A stretch of 64,000 nt of DNA, from the NCBI GenBank assembly GCA_043797815.1, contig JAZDPG010000063.1, forward strand, positions 226,406 to 290,405, written 5' to 3'. How positions within the stretch are numbered: position 1 is the stretch's first letter; every line of letters begins with the position of its first letter. The position numbers and the translations under genes are program-made. The stretch is from Bacteroidota bacterium. GTDB lineage: Bacteria; Bacteroidota; Bacteroidia; Bacteroidales; GCA-2748055. Positions 2,558-64,000 of this stretch are shown piece by piece. Under the pieces are notes generated by a model. It saw only the letters and a list, made by a program, of their open reading frames with translations, had not been told where the DNA came from and did no database searches.

Positions 2558-5161
2558 TCAAGTGCCTGACCGGGAAAAGACGATCTGTCCGTTTTCCACA
2601 TCGATGATGGTATGGGTGTCCGCCTGCACCTTCCCTTCCAGCATGGCAATGGAAAGCTGGTTGAGGATCTTCTTCTGGACCAGTCTTTTCAGCGGCCTTG
2701 CCCCGAACTGCAGGTCAAAGCCTTCCTGCTTCAAAAAGGAGAAACAGCGGTCTGTCACCTCAAAGGTGATTTGCTGCTTCTGAAGTTTTGTCCGGAGCAG
2801 GTTCAGTTGTATGCGCAGAATCCCTTCCATGTCCTCCATGGTCAGGGGCCGGAACATGACCAATTCATCAATGCGGTTCAGAAATTCGGGCCGGAGATTG
2901 CGCTTCAAAAGTTCAAATACCTGCAATCTCGATTTTTCAAAAACCTGATCGATGGCACCCTCTTCCACATCTGAAAGATTTTGCTGAAGGATTTCCGAAC
3001 CCAGGTTTGAGGTCATGATAATGATGGTATTCTTGAAGTTGGCCACCCGGCCTTTGTTGTCGGTCAGCCGGCCATCCTCCAGCACCTGAAGCAGGATATT
3101 GAAAGTATCGGGATGTGCTTTTTCGATTTCATCCAGCAGGACGACAGAGTAAGGTTTTCTCCGGACCGCTTCAGTGAGTTGTCCTCCCTCTTCATACCCC
3201 ACATATCCCGGGGGAGCCCCCACCAGCCTGGATACAGCATGCCTTTCCTGGTACTCGCTCATGTCAATGCGCGTGATCAGTCTTTCGTCATTGAACAGGT
3301 ATTCGGCCAGCGCTTTGGCCAGCTCGGTTTTGCCCACGCCTGTGGTTCCCAGGAAGAGAAACGAACCGATGGGTCTCTGTTCATCTGAAAGACCGGTCCG
3401 GCTCCGCCGGATCGCTGCCGATACGGCCCCGATGGCCTCCTCCTGACCCACAACGCGTTTTTGGAGCTCTTTTTCAATATGCAAAAGTTTCTCTTTGTCA
3501 CTTTGAAGCATTCGTTTCACCGGTACACCGGTCCACCGCGAAACCACCTCTGCAATATCTTCGGCTGTGATCTCCTCCCTGACCATGCGTTGCCCGTCCT
3601 TTTCATACGCCTGCAGTTTGCCGATGCTGGAAGCCAGTTCAGCTTCTGCTGCCGGCAGCTGACCGTAGCGAATTTCAGCCACTGTACCCAGGTCACTTTC
3701 CCTTTCCGCCTTTTCGGCCCGGTAGCGGAGCTGCTCGATCGACTGTTTACTCTTTTGTATTTTTTCTACCACCGATTTCTCTTCCACCCAGTTGGCCATC
3801 AGCTGTTTGTGTTCATCTTCCAGATCGGCGACCTGCCGGGAAATTTGTTCCACCCGGGTTTTGTCCTTTTCCCTTTTAAAGGCCTCCCTTTCAATTTCCA
3901 GCTGCTGGATTTTCCGCTCCAGGATATCAATAGACACAGGTTTGGAATTCATTTCCAGACGAAGGTGGGCTGCAGATTCATCTATCAGGTCGATGGCTTT
4001 ATCGGGAAGGAAACGATCTGTAATATAGCGGACGGAAAGCTGAACCGCTGCAATGATGGCCTCATCCCTGATCCGGATTTTGTGAAAATTCTCATACTTT
4101 TCCTTGATGCCGCGGAGAATGGAAATGGCATCTTCCTCACCCGGTTCATCGATAAGGATTTTCTGGAAACGGCGTTCCAGGGCTTTGTCTTTTTCAAAAT
4201 ACTTCTGGTATTCATTCAGTGTTGTTGCACCGATGGCCCTGAGTTCCCCCCTTGCAAGCGCCGGTTTGAGGATGTTGGCGGCGTCCATGGCTCCCTCTCC
4301 GCCTCCGCCGGCTCCTACGAGTGTGTGGATTTCATCAATGAACAATACGATTTCACCCTCCGATCCGATCACCTCCTTTACTACCGCCTTGAGGCGTTCC
4401 TCAAATTCTCCCTTGTACTTGGCCCCCGCAATCAGGGCTCCCATGTCGAGGGAGTATATCTGCTTGGACAGCAGGTCGTCCGGGACATCTCCGTTTACAA
4501 TCCTGAGCGCAATCCCTTCGGCAATGGCCGTCTTTCCCACGCCCGGCTCACCCACAAGGATGGGATTGTTTTTTGTGCGGCGTGTCAGGATCTGAAGGAC
4601 CCGGCGGATCTCTTCATCCCTTCCGATCACCGGGTCCAGGTTGCCCGATCCGGCCCGTTCATTCAGGTGAACAGCGTATTTGTCCAGGGCATTGTATGAT
4701 TCTTCGGATGAGCGGGTGTGAACCCGGCTTCCTTTGCGCAGCTCCCTGATGGACTCCCTTAGCTCTTTTTCATTCATACCGGCGTCTTTCAGCATGCTGC
4801 TCACCTGGTTTCCCGTGCGAAGGATTCCAAGAAGCAGGTGCTCCAGGGCAATGTATTCATCTCCGAATTCCTTCAGGGCCGATTGTGCTTTATTGAGCGC
4901 CTTTCCGGCCTCCTGGGAAAAATAGGATTCGGCACCCGAAACTTTCGGATGTTGTTTGATCATCTGGTCGAGGGACTTTTCCACCAGGGCCCCATTCATG
5001 GAGAGTTTCTTCATGATAAACGGGAACACGTTCTCATCCACTTCGAGTATTCCCTTGAGCAGGTGGGTGCATTCGATGGACTGATGCTGAAGCTCCATGG
5101 CGATTTGCTGAGCCTGCTGAACAGCCTCCTGTGCTTTGATGGTAAATTTATCTGGTTCCAT
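2558..5161 (-). CDS. clpB: ATP-dependent chaperone ClpB
   Basis: 867 aa. It has a Clp_N-type N-terminus, two AAA+ modules with Walker A motifs GEPGVGKT and GTTGVGKT, and a long charged coiled-coil middle domain between them. Length and layout match ClpB rather than ClpA/ClpC. Confidence 0.95.
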
Positions 5162-11008: not shown

Positions 11009-13120
11009 ATGAACCAACATAACCATGCCAGGCGTGAAAAGAAACCGGGACGGGAAGTCCTGTTCAGGCTCATTTCTGTCAGTCTGCCCTTGCTTTTTCT
11101 GCTGCTTCTGGAAGGTGTATTAAGGCTGGTTTCCTACGGAGATAACCTGGGCCTGTTTATTCAGAATCCGGTGGAAGGGTACGAAGCCTACATGATCGTA
11201 AACCCGGTTGTAGGGAAAAAGTACTTTCATAAACTGGAACATACAGCTCCGCCCAATGATATTTTCCTGAAGAAAAAGCCCGAAGGGACCTTCAGGGTAT
11301 TCGTGATGGGCAGCTCCACCGTGGTAGGGTTTCCCCATGAAAGCAACCTGATGTTTTCCCGGATTTTGCACAAGAGACTTGAAGATGCGTTTCCCGGGAG
11401 AGATATCGAAGTGGTCAACACGGCCATTACTGCCATCAACAGCTATACCCTCCTGGATTTTGCGGGTCAGATCGTCAAATATGAACCCGATGCCATACTG
11501 GTATATGCCGGCCACAACGAATTCTATGGCGCCTTCGGGGCGGGTTCCAACGAAAGCATGAGCAAGAGCCGGTGGCTGACCAGGCTCAACCTGGCCTTGA
11601 TGGATTTCAGATTCTTCCAGCTGGTCAGGAATACTGCCGATAAAATAGGAGCCGGCAAATCGGAACCGGTACACGGAACCCTGATGAAACGCATAGTGGC
11701 CAGTCAGGATATTCCCTATGAGAGTGAAACCTACCGGCTGGCCATGACCCGGTACGCGCAGAACATGGGTGATCTGCTGGCCATATTCAGTGACAGGGAG
11801 ATCCCTGTTTTCATCAGTGAAGTCGTGAGCAATGTGAAGGATATCAAGCCATTAAGTGCTCTTTCCGCAGGGAAGGAAGACGAAGCATGGAAAACATATG
11901 TGCAGGCTGCCGCTGCCTGTAAAAAGGGTGAGTATGATTATGCCCGGGACTTCTTTTATAAGGCCAAGGACCTGGACGGAGTCCGGTTCAGGGCCAGTGA
12001 GGAGGTGAATGAGATCATCCGGAAGCTTGCCGGGGAATACAGCATATACCTCGTGCCCATGCTGGATCAGTTTCAGGCCGCTTCGCCCCACGGTCTGATC
12101 GGGAACAACCTGATGACAGAGCATGTGCATCCGAATATTGCAGGGGCGTTTTTAATGGCCGATGCATTTTACAGGGCGGTTGCAGCATCAGGCATCCTGG
12201 GAGAGGAAGATCAGCATTCATACCATCCATCTGCATACTACAAGGCCAACTGGGGCTACACCGAACTGGACAGTTTGCTGGCCCATCACCGGATTGCCAA
12301 CCTGAAAACACACTGGCCCTTTGTTCCCGTAGAGACAGGCGAAAAGGATTACCGGCTGACTTACAGTCCTGTCTCCATGCTGGATTCAATCGCATTTTCC
12401 GCCATGAAAGATCCGGGAAAATCACTGTTTGAAAGGAGACTCTCCCTGGCACGGGAATATGAATCCAAAGGAAACCTGGCAGCTGCCTATGGCGAGTATG
12501 AGGCCATGTTGCGGACCAATCCATACCGGGCAGTGAACTACCGCGATGCAGCCTCGGTGCTCATTAAGCTGGGCGACCTGCCCCTTGCATTGGCCTATTT
12601 CAAAAAATCGCTGGTATATGAGCCCTCGTTTTATGCCATTTACAGGATGGGGGAAATCTGCTTGATCAAGGGGGATGATGCCAGTGCAAAAAAATACTTC
12701 CGGGAGGGATTTTCCCTGGCCAAAGACAACGGGGACAAGCTGAAGTCACTGGGCAAACTTTATCAGTCGTGCGTTTATGACAATCAGCCGGCTGAGGCAA
12801 AAGCCATTGCGGGGCAGCTGCAGAAATATGGCGCCACCCAATATCTAAGGATCCCTCCCAAAAGTTATACCTATACCCGGTACATTCCATTTCAAACCAG
12901 AAATCAGGTTTTGGATGCAGAACAGATGATGTCAGAGGGCCGGTTTGCTGAAGCCGTTGAGATCCTGGAAGCCTCACTGAAACGATATGACTCCCATATG
13001 GCCCGCCGGTATCTGGGCGAATGCTATCTTCAGACGGGGGATACCCTCAGTGCCCGTAGTCAGCTTGAAAGGGTGAAGGAGGAGTTTGCCTTTGATCCTG
13101 ATTTTAAGCTAATTCAATGA
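11009..13120 (+). CDS. SGNH/GDSL-like hydrolase fused to C-terminal TPR repeats
   Basis: 703 aa. It has an N-terminal TM/signal anchor, an SGNH-like block I (FRVFVMGSSTVVG) and a later GHNEF block. The C-terminal third has TPR-like repeats (AAAYGEYEAMLRTNP…, ALAYFKKSLVYEP…). Confidence 0.55.
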   Translation: MNQHNHARREKKPGREVLFRLISVSLPLLFLLLLEGVLRLVSYGDNLGLFIQNPVEGYEAYMIVNPVVGKKYFHKLEHTAPPNDIFLKKKPEGTFRVFVMGSSTVVGFPHESNLMFSRILHKRLEDAFPGRDIEVVNTAITAINSYTLLDFAGQIVKYEPDAILVYAGHNEFYGAFGAGSNESMSKSRWLTRLNLALMDFRFFQLVRNTADKIGAGKSEPVHGTLMKRIVASQDIPYESETYRLAMTRYAQNMGDLLAIFSDREIPVFISEVVSNVKDIKPLSALSAGKEDEAWKTYVQAAAACKKGEYDYARDFFYKAKDLDGVRFRASEEVNEIIRKLAGEYSIYLVPMLDQFQAASPHGLIGNNLMTEHVHPNIAGAFLMADAFYRAVAASGILGEEDQHSYHPSAYYKANWGYTELDSLLAHHRIANLKTHWPFVPVETGEKDYRLTYSPVSMLDSIAFSAMKDPGKSLFERRLSLAREYESKGNLAAAYGEYEAMLRTNPYRAVNYRDAASVLIKLGDLPLALAYFKKSLVYEPSFYAIYRMGEICLIKGDDASAKKYFREGFSLAKDNGDKLKSLGKLYQSCVYDNQPAEAKAIAGQLQKYGATQYLRIPPKSYTYTRYIPFQTRNQVLDAEQMMSEGRFAEAVEILEASLKRYDSHMARRYLGECYLQTGDTLSARSQLERVKEEFAFDPDFKLIQ

Positions 13121-26042: not shown

Positions 26043-26188
26043 CGACCCGGGTATAAATTGTTCAGAACCAATGCCGTGATAAAATATCTTGACAAAACTC
26101 CCTAATTGTCTTAATTTAGGGTCCCTTAAATGCTGAATTCATGGAAAAATCCGGACCCCCATCATTTAATTTGCGCAAAGAGGGATTG

Positions 26189-27362
26189 ATGCCCCAGGAA
26201 GAGACCCTTGAGGTAGGGAATAAACAGAAGCAACTGAAGATCGGGATCCCCTCAGAGGATCATACCGTGGAGAGCCGGGTACCGATTACCCCGGAAGCAG
26301 TGGAGATCCTCACCGGGCATGGCCACGAAGTGATCCTGGAGAAAGGAGCAGGCAATGCAGCCAATTACCCCGACACCGATTATTCCGAGAAAGGCGGGAT
26401 GATCGCTGAAAACCGGCAGGATGTATTCGGTGAAAGTGACATCCTTCTGAAAATCAGTCCGCCGACCCATGAAGAGATCAGCTGGATGAAGGAGCGGCAG
26501 ACCCTTCTTTCCTCTTTCCAGGTGGCCACCCACCAGGATGAGAAATATGTCCGGATGCTCATGCAGAAACGGGCGACAGCCATTGCATTTGAACGCATCC
26601 AGGATGAACACAAATGCTACCCGGCCGTCCGGAGCATGAGCGCCATTGCCGGGACAACCAGCATGCTGATCGCTGCGGAGTACCTGAGCAATGTGCGGGG
26701 GGGCAAAGGAGTGATGCTGGGCGGCATTACAGGAATTACACCCACCGAAGTGGTGATCCTCGGTGCAGGCACAGCAGCGGAATACGCAGTCAGGGCTGCC
26801 ATGGGACTGGGATCGGAAGTCAAGGTTTTTGACCACTCCATCCACCGGCTACGCAGGTTGCAGGACGCAGTGGGACACATGATCCCCACTTCCATATTTC
26901 ATCCCAAGGTGATTTTAAAAGCACTCCGGTCGGCTGATGTGCTGATCGGCGCCATCCGGAGGGACGAGACCTACAAAGGTTATTTTATCACCGAGGAAAT
27001 GGTGATGGAGATGAAGAAAGGTTCGGTGATCATAGATGTGAGCATCGACAGGGGCGGATGCATAGAAACCTCGGAACTGCGGACCCAGGTTGATCCTGTT
27101 TTTGTAAAGCATGGCGTTATTCATTACTGTGTTCCCAACATCCCCTCGCGGGTGGCCCGGACAGCCTCCATTGCCATATCCAATGTGTTTGCACCACTGA
27201 TCATTGGCATGGGGGAACAGAGTGGAGAAGGAAGGCACCTGAAAGAAAATGTGGGCTTGCGCCATGGCGTTTATATCTACAATGGCATACTGACCAGCGA
27301 AATCCTGGGGCGGAACCTGGGCATCCCCTCCAAGGATATTGATTTATTGATGGCGGTAATCT

Positions 27363-27364
<2 letters not shown>
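26189..27364 (+). CDS. Alanine dehydrogenase/PNT-family NAD-dependent dehydrogenase
   Basis: AlaDH/PNT N-terminal and NAD-binding domains (VVILGAGTAAEYAVRAA). The ATG at 26189 is preferred over the track start at 26141. The substrate is not determinable from sequence. Confidence 0.65.
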
Positions 27365-27467
<103 letters not shown>

Positions 27468-27502
27468 GGGAAAAGGAAAAAGTGAAAAGGAGAAAGGAGA
27501 AA

Positions 27503-58055: not shown

Positions 58056-58880
58056 CTACCCCTTGTGATTGTAGAGGTGAACGTCCTGCTGGGGGAAGGG
58101 GATGGAGATCCCGGCTGCGTCGAAATTCTTCTTGACGCCTTCGGTGATATCGAAAAACAGGCCCCAGTAATCTTCCGACTTCACCCAGGTCCTCAGCTTC
58201 AGGTTCACGGAGCTGTCGCCCAGCGCCTCCACCATCACCTCGGGAGGATTCTCCTCTTTCAGTACCCGCCCGTCTTTTTGCGCCATCTCCAGAAGGATTT
58301 TCTTGGCCTTATCAATGTCGTCGGAGTAACTGATCCCGAAAGAGAAATCGATCCGGCGCGTAGGCATGGCCGAGAAATTGGTGATCGAGCCGGTGGCCAG
58401 GGGAGAATTGGGGATAATTACCTTCCGGTTGTCGGGAGTTGTCAGAATGGTGGTAAAGATCTGGATCTCCATCACGGTTCCCATAAAGCCCTGTGCTTCG
58501 ATGAAATGGCCCACCTCGTAGGGCTTGAACAGCAGGATCATCACGCCCCCGGCGAAGTTCTGGAGGGTGCCCTGCAGGGCCAGGCCGACGGCCAGACCGG
58601 CAGCACCGAGCACGGCTATAAAGGAGGTCATCTGGATCCCCACCATGCCCATGACACTGATCACCAGCATCACCTTCAGCAGGATGTTGGTCATCGACCT
58701 CAGGAACGGGATCAGTGATGCATTTACATTTGATTTTTTCATGAGGCGTACCATGGCCCTGGTGATCCACCTGATCACGATCAGACCAACGATCAGGACC
58801 ACCAGCGCAAGGACGAATTTCATGCCATAGCGGATAAACAGGGCATACATTCTTTCGAGAATTTCCTGGAATTTTTCCAT
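58056..58880 (-). CDS. mscS: Mechanosensitive ion channel (MscS family)
   Basis: 274 aa. Three N-terminal TM helices, then the conserved MscS beta-domain (…FKPYEVGHFIEAQGFMGTVMEIQIFTTILTTPDNRKVIIPNS…). Confidence 0.85.
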   Translation of the reverse strand: MEKFQEILERMYALFIRYGMKFVLALVVLIVGLIVIRWITRAMVRLMKKSNVNASLIPFLRSMTNILLKVMLVISVMGMVGIQMTSFIAVLGAAGLAVGLALQGTLQNFAGGVMILLFKPYEVGHFIEAQGFMGTVMEIQIFTTILTTPDNRKVIIPNSPLATGSITNFSAMPTRRIDFSFGISYSDDIDKAKKILLEMAQKDGRVLKEENPPEVMVEALGDSSVNLKLRTWVKSEDYWGLFFDITEGVKKNFDAAGISIPFPQQDVHLYNHKG

Positions 58881-59262
58881 TGTGCAGATGTTTTAATGTT
58901 ATTTCTATGGGGTTATACCCGAAAAGTACAAAAAAAAAGAGAGGGCGCCTCAAACAAGCATCCCTTAGAAAGAAGAAGAAGGTAAGCCTTTCGGGACACC
59001 CTGTTCCTCATGGGGATATCCAGGAGGAAGCAGATGCCATCAAGACCTGTGACGCAGCCTCAAGATTGACCAAATCGCCAACGATTTGTTAATAATTGAC
59101 GTATAGCCTAATTTTATAACAAAACACATCCTACCCTGAATGCATTGATAAGGAATGTAAAGACAAGAAGCGACTACGGCGTCTAAATATCATTCTTATG
59201 AACACAAGTACAGAAAAACTATACTATATTTACAAATACTTCAAGTAATATCAGCTTTATTT

Positions 59263-59547
59263 ATGCCTAATATTTCCGTAAAAAGCGTCATATCCCGCGA
59301 GATGGTCGGTAAATACGAACGTAACGAAGCCGTCCCTTCGATCAAAGCAGCAAAGAAAATTGCAGATACCTTCGGCGTTTCTCTGGATTATCTGGTGGGA
59401 GAAGGCATTAATGCCCATTTTGATAAAAAAACAGTGCAGAGGATACAAGATCTGGAACTGCTCGAAGAAGACAAAAAGAAGACCCTCTTTGATTTGATGG
59501 ATACATATATCCGGGATGCCAAAACAAGACAGGCGTATTCGGCCTGA
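59263..59547 (+). CDS. XRE-type HTH protein, N-terminally short
   Basis: It aligns by eye with the recognition helix and later parts of HTH_3 domains (…VISREMVGKYERNEAVPSIKAAKKIADTFGVSLDYL). The frame is open upstream only to 59161 and has no ATG/GTG/TTG, so helix 1 appears to be missing. This is the first gene of the AT-rich block. Confidence 0.5.
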   Translation: MPNISVKSVISREMVGKYERNEAVPSIKAAKKIADTFGVSLDYLVGEGINAHFDKKTVQRIQDLELLEEDKKKTLFDLMDTYIRDAKTRQAYSA

Positions 59548-59553
59548 CAACCC

Positions 59554-59799
59554 ATGCAGAAATTAAAGTTTACAAATTATTTTCTGCATACCAGGCAACG
59601 GCCCGACAGAGAGAATATTAAAATGGAGTGGATTGAACAGGTGTACCGGTTCCCCGAACATCAGGTAATTCAGTCCGACGGAAGAAAAAGATTGTGGGGA
59701 TATATTAAAGAAGTCGATAAGTATTTACGCGTCGTGGTACTGGAAGACCATCAAACGATACACAACGCTTTCTTTGACAGGGATTACAAAAAAGACTGA
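59554..59799 (+). CDS. DUF4258-like protein (putative toxin component)
   Basis: 81 aa. The pattern …RPDRENIKMEWIEQVYRFPEHQVIQSDGRKRLWGYI…YLRVVVLED…IHNAFFDR resembles DUF4258. Paired with a DUF2283-like gene 1 nt downstream. Confidence 0.5.
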   Translation: MQKLKFTNYFLHTRQRPDRENIKMEWIEQVYRFPEHQVIQSDGRKRLWGYIKEVDKYLRVVVLEDHQTIHNAFFDRDYKKD

Positions 59800-59800
59800 T

Positions 59801-60004
59801 ATGAAGATTACTTACTTCAAAGATACCGATACGCTACTGGTTAATTTCAACGACAATGAGATTGCCCTTACCCAAGATCTGAACGAAAACGTTCTGGTGG
59901 AGATGGACAAAAACGGTGTCATGGTCTCAATGACCATTGAACATGCACAACATCAGACAGAGATTCAAAGCTTCTCTTTCAATCAGGTAGATAAAGCGGT
60001 ATAA
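59801..60004 (+). CDS. DUF2283-like protein (putative antitoxin component)
   Basis: The ATG at 59801 gives MKITYFKDTDTLLVNFND…VLVEMDKNGVMVSMTIEHA, the DUF2283 pattern. The track start at 59774 is probably too early. Confidence 0.55.
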   Translation: MKITYFKDTDTLLVNFNDNEIALTQDLNENVLVEMDKNGVMVSMTIEHAQHQTEIQSFSFNQVDKAV

Positions 60005-60034: not shown

Positions 60035-60460
60035 CTATGGGTATGTTATTGTCCAGTCCAGCCTGTCAAGGTCATCTAAACTAAGATCATACCTTTTTAA
60101 TATTAGGTGTTGAGAAATCACTGTATCCCAAGGTGTTGACTCTAATGTCTGTGTGTCAAACACATAAACCATAAATGTGTCAGAAGCAATTAGATCTTTG
60201 TATATTATCTCAATACAATCCCTACCACCCAAAACATTATTATTAGTCTCGTGGGGCTGAACTTTCGTGAAATTCGGATTTAATATAGGATTTGGTTGGA
60301 TCGTGAAGCTTAAAGTATCTGGGTACTCTGTAGAAGATGTCACATACAACGATGTTTCTGTTTGATTGAGGAATGTAATTGTTTTATGGCAATCATCTTC
60401 TTCATTACCACACGACTGACTAATCGCCAAGAAGGCTGCAAGAACATATAATAATCTCAT
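60035..60460 (-). CDS. Putative immunity lipoprotein (paralog of 62939-63367)
   Basis: 141 aa. Signal/lipobox (LAAFLAISQSC). It starts 14 nt after the toxin ORF stop. Its C-terminus LKRYDLSLDDLDRLDWTITYP is almost identical to that of the second copy. Confidence 0.6.
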   Translation of the reverse strand: MRLLYVLAAFLAISQSCGNEEDDCHKTITFLNQTETSLYVTSSTEYPDTLSFTIQPNPILNPNFTKVQPHETNNNVLGGRDCIEIIYKDLIASDTFMVYVFDTQTLESTPWDTVISQHLILKRYDLSLDDLDRLDWTITYP

Positions 60461-60474
60461 TTTATCACTTTTTG

Positions 60475-61635
60475 TTAGTACTGATGGTTTTGTATGATAG
60501 CATCCAAAATCCCAGACAACAGAATATTTGGACCGAGTAAATAATCATACCAGCTTAATCTAAGTCGTCCAACATCTAGTACAGCTTGATTTGCAGGATC
60601 ATTGAATCCTAATCGTCTATTATAACCTGTTATAGGATTACCATACCCGCTTGAAAAATCCCAGCCAGAATAACCAGGAATGTACTTATTGAAGTAAGAA
60701 AATGCTCTAATATTAGCATCTTGCTCTGTTGGATGTAGACTATGAGCAGTCCCCTCTTTGCTTGTCGCACTCGGGATGCCATATTTTGATAAGTAGAATA
60801 AGCCAGAGGTCTGACTTTGAAGATAATGACCAAATTCATGTTGGAACAGACTATTATTAGGATCAGCGATCAATCCATCAGATCCAATAATATAACTACC
60901 AAGTGTTATCCCAAAATAATCATTAGTGTATGATTCAATAGCTGTGGCTCCACCGTAATATGAGACGCTTTTTATACCTCCTAAGAAGCCGTGTATTTGC
61001 GAACTAGAGTACCCTAAGCTCGTTTGTGGGTTTTGCCAAGTAAACCTTGAAACAACTTGTATGAACTGGCTGAAATCCCCTCCGAGATTCTCGTCTACTT
61101 GAAATAAACCTTTAGAAATATTCCAGGAATCATTCATCCGTTTGGATGCTTCGTCAAATCCACCTTGAAGTCCATTTCTATTGGATAATCCAGTAACAAA
61201 ACCAAATGTTCCAGCGATTGAAGCATCTGCAATATTTGTTGCAACAATGGTTTCTACTGTTCCAGGAGGAATAATCCCCAGTCCCATGGCAGCCAATGCC
61301 CAGTGCCACCATTTTTCACCTGTGGGATCGGTATAGATGAGTGGGTTATTGAGGGCATAAGTGTACCAGTAAAGCCCCTCTGAGGTCGTACATGCGCAAT
61401 ATAGAACCCCGTTTTCTTCGTATACATGCAAGTATACAGGCTCCTCTATCTTTTCTTCAAAGACAGGTTCCTGCATTACAAAATAATCGTATTGCTGCGG
61501 TTCAGAAGAGGAGTACTGGGATTCGCTGAACATCAGCTTAAAGTTAAATTTTTTCTTTTCAGTTGAGTGATTTTCAGTTGAAAAGAAAATAACAGGAGTG
61601 AGCTTGTCCCCCGCAGTTTCTGGCACATTCCACAC
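60475..61635 (-). CDS. Orphan polymorphic-toxin C-terminal module (RHS-core tail + HExxH domain)
   Basis: It contains LYWYTYALNNPLIYTDPTGE (the end of an RHS-type repeat-associated core), a hydrophobic segment, and then a domain with FQHEFGHYLQ. The ORF opens right after an in-frame TGA and has only a GTG at 61635. The first in-frame ATG codons are internal. AT-rich. Confidence 0.6.
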   Translation of the reverse strand: MWNVPETAGDKLTPVIFFSTENHSTEKKKFNFKLMFSESQYSSSEPQQYDYFVMQEPVFEEKIEEPVYLHVYEENGVLYCACTTSEGLYWYTYALNNPLIYTDPTGEKWWHWALAAMGLGIIPPGTVETIVATNIADASIAGTFGFVTGLSNRNGLQGGFDEASKRMNDSWNISKGLFQVDENLGGDFSQFIQVVSRFTWQNPQTSLGYSSSQIHGFLGGIKSVSYYGGATAIESYTNDYFGITLGSYIIGSDGLIADPNNSLFQHEFGHYLQSQTSGLFYLSKYGIPSATSKEGTAHSLHPTEQDANIRAFSYFNKYIPGYSGWDFSSGYGNPITGYNRRLGFNDPANQAVLDVGRLRLSWYDYLLGPNILLSGILDAIIQNHQY

Positions 61636-61639
61636 CCTT

Positions 61640-62220
61640 CACCGGTAGTTGAACATCTGTGCCTTGGAACATAACCAGCCTTAACAATGGATTAGGCACC
61701 TGTTCAAGCCGTGGGAGGGCAAGTGTCAAGGTTCCCCGCCAGGGGACCCTTCAGGGCTTGACCTTGACTGTGGGAGGAGCTGGCTTATCTTGCCGGATCC
61801 GGTTTTAAGGCGTTTCTGAGATTGGTGGTTGCAGTTTTTATACAGGATACATCGTAGGTTTCTAGCGCACTGGCTTCACTGGCTATTTAGCATAATAGCC
61901 TTATAGGGCACGGGCTGGGGGTTAGCAGTGTTTTCTTTGGATCTTAGGCCATTGTGTTTCTTGTAGAAGCGGGTAGATTGATACGTGGCCCTATAAGAAG
62001 CTGTTATGTCAACATAGCTTGGGGGCGCCTTTGCCGGCAGGAAGGCTTGCAGCTCTTTGTAAAGTATTTGGTTCCGGCGTTAGCCTGTGTGGCTTTACAA
62101 TGTGCTGCAACCAGGGCAGGCGAGGCAAAGCGCCAGAAGGGCGGGGTGCGGAACAAAATAAAAGACCGGGCGAGCCTTAAGCGAAGTGAGAGGCGGGGAT
62201 TTTGTTTTGTGGGGAAGGAT
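61640..62220. other. GC-rich, ORF-free, hairpin-dense spacer (candidate structured RNA or decayed core remnant)
   Basis: No credible ORF in six frames. Multiple helices were read directly from the sequence (see findings). The composition contrasts with the AT-rich flanks. Confidence 0.4.
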
Positions 62221-62223
62221 CTC

Positions 62224-62520
62224 CTAGTAGGGCAACTTTCCTGGATCCTGCCGGTTGTCCCAGAATACAATCAATTGAAGTTCCTTTTTTCTCGGCCTTA
62301 CCCGGTAGTACAGTGTATTCTGCTTGGTGACTAAACCCTTTCTGATGTTCTTCTTTTTCCTGGATTCCTCGAACATCTCAGGGTTTTGCTTGATCTGTTC
62401 CAGCAGATGATCAACCTCGCTTATGAAGTTTTGGATTTCTTTTTCTGTCCAGACTTTTTCCAGGTGTTCAAGGACCTTAAAATATGTACGTCTGGCTGTG
62501 GGTGTCCAGAGGATCTCCAT
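62224..62520 (-). CDS. RelE/ParE-family type II toxin
   Basis: 98 aa. MEILWTPTARRTYFKVLEHLEKVW…LYYRVRPRKKELQLIVFWDNRQDP is the typical Bacteroidota RelE/ParE pattern. The start shares a base with the upstream antitoxin stop (TAATG). Confidence 0.75.
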   Translation of the reverse strand: MEILWTPTARRTYFKVLEHLEKVWTEKEIQNFISEVDHLLEQIKQNPEMFEESRKKKNIRKGLVTKQNTLYYRVRPRKKELQLIVFWDNRQDPGKLPY

Positions 62521-62771
62521 TAGTCCAGCTTGTATTTTGCCCGGACCTTTTCCATCACTTCCTCATGGGGTATCAGCTCGCCACGATCCGCCTCGGCAAG
62601 ACCTTCTTCGATAGCTGTCCTTTCAGCGTCACTGATCTCATCCCACCAGTCGGCTCCTTTCTCTTTTTTAAATACCGCCTCTACCTTCGCCAGTACGGAA
62701 GGTTTTTCGGTATTCAGGATCATTTGGACCAGCTCCAGTTTTTTTGCCTGTAGATTCATGATTGCTTTCAT
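62520..62771 (-). CDS. Antitoxin partner of the RelE/ParE toxin
   Basis: 83 aa, an acidic helical protein (…WWDEISDAERTAIEEGLAEADRGELIPHEEVMEKV…). Translationally coupled to the toxin. Confidence 0.65.
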   Translation of the reverse strand: MKAIMNLQAKKLELVQMILNTEKPSVLAKVEAVFKKEKGADWWDEISDAERTAIEEGLAEADRGELIPHEEVMEKVRAKYKLD

Positions 62772-62938: not shown

Positions 62939-63367
62939 TTATGGATAGGTTATAGTCCAATCCATTCGCTCAAGATCATCATAGCTTAGGTCATAACGTT
63001 TGAGAACCTTATAACCATTTCTTACTTCTTCCCAAGAATACTTATTCAATGTATCCGTAATGAAGACAAAAACAGAAATTGTATCCTTGGGAAGCATTGA
63101 ATAAACATCTTCCCATTTATTTCCGCTGCCCGCAATATGGGTTGATTTTGGTAAAACATCGTATATGACATACTCATCTGTTTGAGGTAAAGTAGTATCT
63201 GGATACTCTGTACCCTTTTCACCCCCTAAAGCAAGATACCAGCTTGTCGAAAAGGTAGTATTGTTTTCTAAATATAAAGGATAGTCCTTTTCTAAACAAC
63301 AATCGCACAGAAAGACTATAACTGGAAATAAGAAGAAAATAAGCAATTTAAACATATATCGTTTCAT
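62939..63367 (-). CDS. Putative immunity protein (paralog of 60035-60460)
   Basis: 142 aa. Signal peptide with Cys cluster (FFLFPVIVFLCDCC). It starts 10 nt after the restored toxin stop. C-terminus LKRYDLSYDDLERMDWTITYP. Confidence 0.6.
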   Translation of the reverse strand: MKRYMFKLLIFFLFPVIVFLCDCCLEKDYPLYLENNTTFSTSWYLALGGEKGTEYPDTTLPQTDEYVIYDVLPKSTHIAGSGNKWEDVYSMLPKDTISVFVFITDTLNKYSWEEVRNGYKVLKRYDLSYDDLERMDWTITYP

Positions 63368-63377
63368 GTTAGATGGA

Positions 63378-64000
63378 TTAACGGGTAGTAGGATATCTTT
63401 TAAATTTTGTCCAGTCTATGCCATAATACTCTTCAAAATAATCAGCCGCATTCCGATTCGCATTTAGTTCATACCACTTTAGTATATGGGAAGTTATGTA
63501 ATAGGGCTCTCCAGCTACAGGTCCTGAATTACTGGCACTTATCAGGCTGGGTAACCCTATAAAAATAAATATGACATACCAAAAGACCGGCTATCAAATG
63601 TATGTCCATATTCATGCATATAGAGAGGATCAGAGATCACATGATTCTCAAATTCTCCTTCAATCTCATCGTCCGTATTGATATTAATGTAATTCCCAAT
63701 TGATATCCCATTTCGTCCAGACTGATTTTCTCTTGTAGAGAAGGTTGCTCCCCCGAAATAATCAACCCGGTCGACATGGCCAAACATGTTTCTAGCATGA
63801 GTATAGGTTCGCCCTAATTCAGTTTGAAGATGTTCCCAGGTAAATCGTGAAAACAGTTGCCACGCTTGTTCTCCATCACTTCTGTTAGGATCTGTTTGAA
63901 AAAGTCCTAAATCAATATCCATGGCTTGTTGAAACTTGCTATTTGCCTCGTAATAGTTATCGTTGAAAAGAACATTAAAATATTGAACTGTATAGCCCAA
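63378..64000 (-). pseudogene. HExxH polymorphic-toxin gene tip, interrupted by a 1-nt deletion (continues beyond the window)
   Basis: The frame ending at TAG 63557-63559 reads …YMHEYGHTFDSRSFGMSYLFL*. The next frame (stop at 63378-63380) reads GLPSLISASNSG…WYELNANRNAADYFEEYYG…, which aligns with the paralog's …YGIPSATS…TEQDANIRAFSYF…. One missing base in a TAY codon explains the break. Confidence 0.65.

Follow-up and report, generated by a model that had tools for sequence, protein, structure and literature searches.

What is the gene-free segment of about 580 bp at positions 61640–62220 of the window, a 64,000-nucleotide stretch of contig JAZDPG010000063.1 from a Bacteroidota bacterium (GCA_043797815.1)? 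It is flanked by an open reading frame (ORF) for an RHS-tip toxin (60475–61635, minus strand) and a gene for a ParE/RelE-family toxin (62224–62520, minus strand) that is preceded by an 83-aa antitoxin-like gene; an earlier note on the sequence had recognized both flanks correctly. Three explanations had been offered there: a large structured non-coding RNA (ncRNA), a decayed RHS core, or a recombination or attachment scar. The last came closest. The segment is likely to be a conserved non-coding stretch shared by a family of mobile elements of Bacteroidota, with an inverted pair of dif-like, XerC/XerD-type sites at its core, and the copy in the window to be a relic; the homologous elements encode two recombinases of the Xer family.

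The ParE-like protein has many close relatives, and the contigs that encode the closest ones share one synteny. A divergently oriented group, comprising a helix-turn-helix (HTH) gene of the XRE type and small genes, is followed by genes for a primase (~900 aa, DnaG/Toprim), two adjacent tyrosine recombinases, a RelB-like antitoxin and ParE, then by a gap of 0.7–1.05 kb with no called gene, and finally by a toxin that carries the end of an RHS core (Ntox24, with Imm53, in L001; contigs are designated here by L numbers). This order is common to L001/L178, L003/L006, L004, L007, L176, L095, L097, L150 and L169, and the gene before the gap may be a DUF1016-like gene in place of RelB/ParE. Read in the direction of ParE, the window segment is colinear and homologous with the gaps downstream of the ParE homologues, with 87.6% identity to L001 over 169 bp and further blocks in L003, L005 and L008. 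The earlier note had allowed for a segment with no conserved homologues; homologous DNA was instead found in metagenomic contigs, downstream of close ParE homologues. More loci of this kind, in metagenome-assembled genomes mostly labelled Bacteroidales or Bacteroidota, came from a scan of one genome per species. RHS-tip toxin and immunity-like cargo follows the dif-like unit described below in L001/L178, L006, L095, L097 and L117 as well.

Both recombinases match the NCBIfam XerD/XerC models at E ~1e-50, under the equivalog cutoffs, and the nearest solved structures in the PDB are those of XerA and XerD. On integron-integrase models they reach only 65–119 bits against a cutoff of 265, lower than their XerC/D scores. 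No relaxase, rolling-circle replication (RCR) Rep or Rep_3-type initiator was seen in the loci, the only such gene being that of the DnaG/Toprim primase. The toxin–antitoxin (TA) genes and the gap are 83–89% identical in DNA between elements, whereas the primases and recombinases share only 30–37% amino acid identity; therefore, the TA genes and the gap have been exchanged as a module between diverged backbones. Scans of IMG/VR for the core of the unit and for the tail of the neighbouring module modX gave no match, and one loose-pattern match (L057) looks like chance. No description of the element family was found in the searchable literature, which is not proof of novelty.

The core of the region is a unit of two inverted dif-like sites, A and A'. 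The pattern CCTATAAN{5,7}TTATGYYAA has exactly two matches in the window, in inverted orientation at 61887–61907 and 61990–62012, with 0.00 expected from 100 shuffles; the short XerD arm alone is not specific (15 matches versus 15.8 expected). Site A consists of an XerD-type arm TGTTGACATAA (62014–62004), a central region of 7 nt, CAGCTTC (62003–61997), and an XerC-type arm TTATAGGGCCA (61996–61986). In site A', the XerD-type arm ATTTAGCATAA (61885–95) and the XerC-type arm TTATAGGGCAC (61901–11) are separated by a central region of 5 nt, TAGCC (61896–900). The arm cores of the two sites are ~84 bp apart. Among the first 56 loci, dif-like matches with 0–1 mismatch occur only in gaps downstream of ParE. 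Searches of the window with nhmmer profiles of the unit and of the half-site gave no second unit; the profile was built from 18 units including that of the window, whose own match is thus by construction.

The predicted chromosomal dif of Bacteroidetes is TTGTACTATAA TTTATA TTATGTWAAAT (Kono 2011, PMC3025954 Additional file 2), as in Gramella (TTGTACTATAA TTTATA TTATGTAAAAT) and Dyadobacter (...TTATGTTAAAT) (Kono 2011, PMC3025954). In the homologues of the window unit, the XerD-type arm reads ATTTAACATAA, which when reverse-complemented is identical to the XerD arm of this predicted dif (TTATGTTAAAT); site A' of the window matches at 10 of 11 positions and site A at 8 of 11. The XerC-type arm, TTATAG(G/T)nnnn (TTATAGG), fits the inner 6–8 of the 11 positions of the dif XerC arm TTGTACTATAA, and its outer positions vary, pairing instead with the partner site. 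Two helices take on a different meaning in this light. The hairpin GGCTATT/AATAGCC, reported earlier and present at 61881–61900, sits in site A', where it forms part of the XerD-type arm, and changes seen in homologues disrupt this local pairing, which favours a conserved site over a helix. A 10-bp helix that had escaped notice, CTTATAGGGC/GCCCTATAAG, consists of the two XerC-type arms facing each other.

Metagenomes were scanned with the pattern TTAACATAA-N5-7-TTATWG-N85-105-TTATGYWAA, which matched at least 120 contigs. Most of the matches listed are AT-rich and Flavobacteriia-like, with a first site that is almost exactly the predicted chromosomal dif and that, in four of the five such contigs with examined gene context, adjoins a gene for an MFS transporter; these matches independently confirm the identity of the motif. 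A minority of the matches listed are GC-richer inverted pairs like that of the window, several of them beside primase–int–int(–TA) genes. At least 24 such GC-rich units, 123–133 bp long, were catalogued. Their central regions follow a 7/5 rule, with 7+5 nt in 18 of 24 units (7+7 in four and 7+6 in two), and the length between the arm cores is kept at 79–91 nt while the sequence of the centre differs between elements.

Folding with DNA parameters predicted the same forked hairpin for every unit. The XerD-type arms form the outer stem, the central regions an asymmetric bubble, and the XerC-type arms with a variable extension the inner stem; intact units fold with z = −3.4 and −4.7. In the window, the outer bases of the variable centre extend the inner stem as GGGC-ACG / CGT-GCCC. 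Elsewhere the extensions differ in sequence yet remain complementary (CCCGG/CCGGG, CCGCC/GGCGG, AAAAGGG/CCCTTTT, CTCGC/GCGAG). Stem covariation was measured by a permutation test on duplex energies: over the 13 nt beyond the arms, pairing within a unit beats pairing across units with p = 0.0009. Column-wise counting of pairs on the unit alignment was dropped, since bulges shift the register of the stem extension.

Dozens of AT-rich contigs (L058–L177; L060 108–228, L067 292–412, L116 3846–3966) carry the predicted chromosomal dif ATTTAACATAATATAAATTATAGTACAA, followed within 95–200 nt by more motifs resembling the XerD arm and often, among the matches listed, by a second, inverted dif-like site. 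In four of five contigs checked, ATTTAACATAATATAAATTATAGTACAA lies 170–280 bp from the MFS-transporter gene, with variable genes on its other side. The arrangement could represent a conserved structure near dif or tiny Xer-dependent insertions. In L079, a group II intron domain (RF00029, 55.9 bits) at 1140–1216 is located ~900 nt from the dif-like unit.

A folded substrate of this kind has a precedent. The attP(+) site of phage CTXphi comprises two inversely oriented dif-like sites with non-canonical centres (12 and 5–7 bp), 90 bp apart, which are functional only when folded (PMC4246890). The unit resembles it in having inverted XerC/XerD sites ~85–90 bp apart with unequal, non-canonical centres, neither of which looks functional as a double-stranded site, and in the intrastrand pairing, predicted here, into a forked hairpin resembling a single dif site whose centre is unpaired. 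Because an inverted dif-like pair at this distance with unequal centres is the layout of CTXphi attP(+), the unit of 126 bp is taken as the predicted recombination site of the element-encoded Xer-like pair. The backbone of an element would thus comprise the HTH genes on one side and, on the other, the primase, the two XerC/XerD-family tyrosine recombinases and RelB/ParE or the DUF1016-like gene, followed by the non-coding region and AT-rich cargo. As neither double-stranded site looks competent, the unit would probably act as a folded single strand, as CTXphi attP(+) does: the XerD-type arms would be the outer stem, the 7-nt and 5-nt centres the bubble, and the XerC-type arms with their variable extension the inner stem, so that the folded strand would mimic one dif site. 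On the sequence evidence, we infer that the recombinases bind the unit, that it folds as a single strand, and that it serves integration or multimer resolution.

Differences from CTXphi are also evident. CTXphi is a filamentous phage with single-stranded DNA (ssDNA), an IMEX (a mobile element that integrates by exploiting Xer) that uses the XerCD of its host and has no recombinase of its own, whereas the elements here encode an Xer-like pair and a primase. They are absent from IMG/VR, genes for ssDNA replication were not seen in the loci, and their centres, 7/5 instead of 12/5–7, are unlike the centre of the host dif. Unlike an IMEX, the element in L178 is inserted behind an RHS-type gene and not at a recognizable dif; the whole element lies directly behind a gene of the DUF6443/MAM/CBM96 (RHS) type, encoding at least 1494 aa, together with a 149-aa gene.

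Several observations weigh against the interpretation as a whole. The elements have a DnaG-type primase and not a rolling-circle Rep, their centres (CAGCTTC/TTGAC) differ from the TTTATA of the chromosomal dif, and neither the junction in the window (58860–59280) nor the element ends in L178 yielded a dif-like site. The 7/5 rule is broken by the 7+7 and 7+6 units (four and two, respectively), and the unit was not seen in the available DNA of L007, L009, L010 and L018. Inverted repeats pair by construction, which makes part of the hairpin signal trivial, and the covariation test rests on ~8 independent stem variants. No homologues of the primase or the recombinases are present in the 64-kb window, which ends 1.2 kb beyond the antitoxin gene, so that such genes may lie further on.

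A wider proposal is more tentative, and we consider it possible rather than probable: that a new family of elements, with its own XerC/XerD-like pair and a double-dif hairpin like CTXphi attP, moves itself and its RHS-tip cargo into rhs loci, possibly in single-stranded form. If true, this would be a third independent use of tyrosine recombination on a folded hairpin, after integron attC and CTXphi, and a dedicated vehicle for the exchange of polymorphic-toxin tips. A functional hairpin would offer a testable mechanism for the arrival of new toxin tips at rhs loci, and would extend folded-substrate Xer recombination from Vibrio phages and integrons to Bacteroidota. In L178, two terminator-like direct repeats of 35 nt (3870–3904 and 12456–12490, 80% identical) bracket the element, the orphan toxin and the Imm53 gene, and the repeat position is directly after the immunity-like gene of the large DUF6443 (RHS-type) gene. 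Such repeats might be att-like, or simply two terminators of similar sequence.

The sites might also act as ordinary double-stranded sites, either bounding an invertible switch of ~84 bp or, like the pdif sites of Acinetobacter, marking module boundaries at which Xer recombination shuffles TA and toxin/immunity modules. The element-borne sites share with pdif their alternating, inverse orientation, the TA modules that are typical cargo of pdif modules in the literature, and the shuffling of modules between backbones: TA genes and non-coding DNA have clearly moved between divergent backbones here, and the high similarity to L001 stops at site A. Yet pdif sites have 6-bp centres, depend on the host XerCD and bracket gene-sized modules on both sides, while the sites here are 84 bp apart and have 7/5 centres, with no partner site upstream of the TA module, between the toxin/immunity genes or after them. 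A double-stranded Xer site has a centre of 6–8 bp, which suits the 7 nt of site A but makes the 5 nt of site A' too short; the 7+5 pairing is systematic, and a double-stranded site has no need of covarying complementarity beyond its arms. This explanation is considered quite unlikely.

Integron attC sites are imperfect inverted repeats of 57–141 bp (R''-L''...L'-R', with R' = GTTRRRY), with extrahelical bases and a variable centre. The unit resembles them in its imperfect inverted repeat, conserved outer boxes and variable centre, and attC is recombined as a folded single strand by an Xer-related tyrosine recombinase, as is proposed for the unit. The outer box of the unit consensus, GTTAAAT, fits GTTRRRY (the window has GCTAAAT), the length of 123–133 bp is in the same range, the unequal 7/5 centres and a bulged G would agree with extrahelical bases, and TA cassettes and AT-rich cargo are typical neighbours. 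In contrast to integrons, there is no cassette array, as units are found only in front of cargo and not after each gene; the integron-integrase score (119 bits, cutoff 265) is below the XerC/D scores; and the arms are full 11-bp dif arms, not 7-bp R/L boxes.

In rAID-1 clusters of Bacteroidales, an XerD-family recombinase is associated with co-oriented, low-GC polymorphic-toxin cargo and integron-like intergenic motifs (bioRxiv 10.1101/471110). The elements here likewise have an XerD-family recombinase followed by low-GC polymorphic-toxin cargo, with a GC step between backbone and cargo. As described (the comparison is with the description only), rAID-1 clusters have a single recombinase, and their orphan immunity genes form long arrays in which repeats separate the ORFs, whereas the present elements have two recombinases, a primase, a TA module, one or two complete RHS-tip pairs, and sites only before the cargo. 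The cer and psi sites, finally, are single double-stranded Xer core sites with ~150–200 bp of accessory sequences, used by host XerCD with ArgR/PepA or ArcA. They share with the unit an Xer core site with adjacent accessory sequences beside stability functions, but have no inverted partner site. The features of the region in the window are listed in Table 1.

Table 1. Positions of the dif-like unit and of neighbouring features in the window.
Feature	Position	Strand	Remark
Whole unit	61877..62022	-	Inverted dif-like pair with 7/5 central asymmetry; 126 bp (61887-62012) plus short flanks
Dif-like site A	61986..62014	-	Matches reverse complement of predicted Bacteroidetes dif
Dif-like site A'	61885..61911	+	Inverted relative to site A
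Variable centre of unit	61912..61985		Loop of forked hairpin
hp1	62136..62223	-	Nearly invariant; directly after ParE stop codon
hp2	62020..62140	-	Long imperfect hairpin, ~115 nt
modX	61650..61830	-	Contains three-way junction 61725-61768
AT-rich repeat and hairpin (TCAACTGAAAATCAC TCAACTGAAAAGAAA)	61548..61590	-	Just upstream of probable toxin start (ATG 61533)
RelB-like antitoxin (62520-62771) and ParE/RelE-family toxin (62224-62520)	62224..62771	-	83-89% DNA identity to TA modules of L001-L010
Cargo: orphan RHS-tip toxin and 141-aa immunity gene	60035..61533	-	AT-rich DNA
HTH-XRE, 81-aa ORF and DUF2283 genes	59263..60004	+	90% identical to block divergently upstream of L003/L006 primase gene

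From the ParE stop codon to the toxin gene, the region carries four conserved modules (hp1, hp2, the unit and modX) in the same order in independent metagenome contigs. In hp1, an A-rich arm (ACAAAACAAAA) and a T-rich arm (TTTTGTTTTGT) enclose a GC-rich centre, and the module includes the helix of AACAAAAT (62152–59) with ATTTTGTT (62199–206), which is present as previously reported. Homologues of hp1 occur in 10 loci, after either ParE or the DUF1016-like gene, and the module is absent from L001. A role as an intrinsic terminator was dropped, as the stem is weak (folding z ~0). The stems of hp2 are GGCGCTTTGCC/GGCAAAGGCGCC, TTGCAGC/GCTGCAA and TTGTAAAG/CTTTACAA. As DNA, hp2 folds at −25.4 kcal/mol with z = −3.0 (0 of 200 shuffles as good), and it has homologues in 10 loci, with inversion in L007 and compensatory changes in 7 of 30 pairs.

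ModX is homologous to L093, L005 and L095 (nhmmer, E 1e-37 to 1e-19), with weaker homology to L001/L076. It has an invariant tail, CTTGACACTKG..CCCACGGCTT, and at its 3' end the helix of GTGCCT (61659–64) with AGGCAC (61694–99), which lies where it had been described. The same holds for its three-way junction, in which the P1 helix of GTCAAGGT (61725–32) with ACCTTGAC (61761–68) encloses TCCCC/GGGGA and CCC/GGG. P1 has two compensatory pairs and two pairs that are broken in some sequences, and one inner hairpin is lengthened compensatorily in L095. Unit and half-site nhmmer profiles do not recognize modX as a diverged unit. A likeness between the modX tail GCCCTCCC and the nic region of RSF1010 was rejected, as that sequence is not conserved in homologues. 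Hp1, hp2 and modX may be accessory sequences, a terminator, or priming or transfer signals. In L005 (1387–1700), hp1 follows a split DUF1016-like gene. In this contig, the stretch from one TATGTTAA core of the unit to the other is precisely missing (junction GCTATGTTAAAGAACC), and modX is kept at 82% identity to the window; the locus represents either a collapsed unit or an empty site.

The whole hairpin cluster, including the unit, could instead be a signal for ssDNA replication or transfer, such as initiation sites for the DnaG primase, an oriV with iterons, or an oriT, with the dif-like arms being secondary, for example as a multimer-resolution site beside an origin. For hp1, hp2 and modX, the chief competing explanation is that they serve the primase as a replication or transfer signal; this would account for four consecutive conserved hairpin modules beside a primase gene, for the iteron-like occurrence of a 15-nt motif, in tandem within the primase ORF and also at the end of the region nearest the toxin, and for the invariant tail of modX 3' of its hairpin, as in oriT nic regions. 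A TA module beside a resolution site is also a classic plasmid stability arrangement (RK2 par). For the cluster as a whole this explanation is nevertheless unlikely: the loci showed neither a relaxase nor a Rep_3-type initiator, conservation is highest at precisely the bases of the dif arms, and some elements with the unit lack modX and hp2 or carry them inverted.

The sites of the Xer-like pair, in our preferred reading, also have to be weighed against RNA structure, which the earlier note had emphasized by calling the segment helix-dense. In a shuffled-sequence control, the minimum free energy (MFE) of the 588 nt as RNA is not beyond chance, with z = −1.53 on the plus strand, where 7 of 100 shuffles fold equally well, and z = −0.31 on the minus strand; z stays close to 0 for most windows of 120 nt within the segment. 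The long-range complement of TCCCCGCC (61733–40) with GGCGGGGA (62192–99) does exist, but ~2.6 pairs of 8-nt complements are expected by chance in 588 nt (~588^2/2 x 4^-8). The Rfam 15 covariance models gave no match at the gathering score in the whole 64 kb, only chance-level matches at E<=10 in 61300–62600, and no match in the homologous gap of L001, and ARAGORN found no tRNA or transfer-messenger RNA (tmRNA), in line with the inability to assign the segment to a known RNA family by eye. G-U pairs in the hp1 helix had been taken to favour the plus strand as transcript. This argument did not survive comparison: in 8 of 9 homologues the 3' arm is GTTTTGTT instead of ATTTTGTT, which gives a T.G pair on the minus strand and an A.C mismatch on the plus strand.

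A structured ncRNA, either a long minus-strand 5' leader preceding the toxin gene or a plus-strand transcript, is thus very unlikely, although several compensatory changes occur in the modX three-way junction and in hp2 and the region is conserved as a block before the toxin gene. Besides the empty Rfam search, the whole-segment z of −1.5 and −0.3 and the disfavoured plus strand, a scan for sigma-70 promoters and terminators and for the Bacteroidetes −7 motif found none in the segment, only the TA promoter outside it (−7 box TAAATTTG at ~62787). The modules are gained, lost and inverted independently, and the core conserved bases are those of a recombinase site, the best-conserved helices being its inverted copies. 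The large structured RNA of the earlier proposal therefore finds no support. Its three-way junction is a real conserved feature with a few compensatory changes, for which a small RNA is one of several candidate natures; it may be an ssDNA signal, an accessory sequence or a small RNA, and a small structured part of modX is possible either as RNA or as single-stranded DNA.

A decayed GC-rich RHS core, or a remnant of another protein-coding gene, is refuted at the sensitivity reached and hardly conceivable as an explanation. The position directly upstream of an orphan RHS-tip toxin and a GC content like that of coding DNA of the genome had spoken for it. All six frames are broken, as had been noted; their translations gave no Pfam match at E<=10, and a concatenated six-frame pseudo-protein, a query also aimed at spurious ORFs called on homologous DNA, found no match among 5.8 billion proteins. 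Neither strand is purine-rich. Homologous DNA in other contigs is also uncalled and non-coding and follows ParE, not lying inside rhs, and the only RHS-core-like residues are retained in the toxin ORF itself (aa 85–106). No second copy of the segment was found within the window, blastn against plasmid and phage records gave no relative, and exact-protein look-ups of the flanking genes returned no record.

The description of the segment as GC-rich holds relative to its flanks only. Its GC content is 52–56%, compared to a window mean of ~50% and to 35–40% in the toxin/immunity DNA on both sides. Therefore, the composition of the segment is normal and the AT-rich flanks are the unusual part; the GC step is the border between an element backbone of ~50% GC and AT-rich cargo.

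The window copy itself is probably a relic recombination module, mutated and inactive, because its XerD arms are mutated, an hp1 pair is broken, its fold is weak and no homologue of the recombinases or the primase is found in the 64 kb. Each of the two XerD-type arms has a substitution at a position that hardly varies among the 18 aligned units (TTGACATAA, TTAGCATAA); site A has G where nearly all homologues have A, and the two substitutions are not mutually complementary. In hp1, a G>A change breaks one C-G pair. The unit folds at z = −1.7/−2.0, compared to −3.4 and −4.7 for intact units. Decay comparable to that of the window copy is seen in L117. The segment can be annotated as a decayed recombination/backbone module of a mobile element within an RHS toxin array, and the family as one with Xer-type recombinases, a TA module and a predicted double-dif hairpin immediately upstream of orphan RHS-tip toxin/immunity pairs.

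Of the RHS core domain, the orphan toxin retains no more than the final ~22 residues, followed by a HExxH-type tip. Its 386-aa ORF probably starts at ATG 61533 (MFSESQYSSSEPQQYDYFVMQEP, MFSES...), and the start of the L006 toxin is homologous (MFSESHYTASVAQQYSYFVMQDP); because the toxin gene most likely starts there, the probable non-coding span is 61534–62223. The 34 codons of the ORF upstream of this ATG (61533–61635) overlap the AT-rich repeat, which has z ~−3 in sliding windows and is conserved with L003/L006. Two copies of a 15-nt motif, TTCAACTGAAAA(C/G)A, lie 15 nt apart within 61548–61590 of the window. In L178 (6041–6085, 9096–9112 and 11240–11274), the same iteron-like motif occurs as three tandem copies inside the primase ORF, encoding STENS repeats, as a single copy in int2, and in one or two copies a short way upstream of the cargo toxin gene.

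The gene order of the window differs from that of intact elements. The block of HTH, 81-aa and DUF2283 genes lies beyond the toxin/immunity pair and abuts the chromosomal MscS and GlnRS genes (from 58880), and upstream of the antitoxin, where relatives have int2, the window has an immunity gene and a toxin gene. This order is a circular permutation of an intact element or the remains of tandem copies. Two paralogous toxin/immunity pairs flank the TA module: the toxin tips at 63557–64000 and 60475–61199 are homologous HExxH-type domains, and the immunity ORFs at 62939–63367 and 60035–60460 have only their C-terminal ends in common (...RYDLSxDDLxRxDWTITYP). The ParE fragment closest to that of the window (98% identical in amino acids, residues 49–97) is encoded at L013 1–147 and is directly followed by metabolic genes, and nothing of the non-coding region is seen there; therefore, the TA module also occurs without it. 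Elsewhere in the window, a tandem array of ~18 copies of the heptamer AGTGCTC/AGTACTC is located at 27349–27474, at the end of or just after the ORF at 26141–27364.

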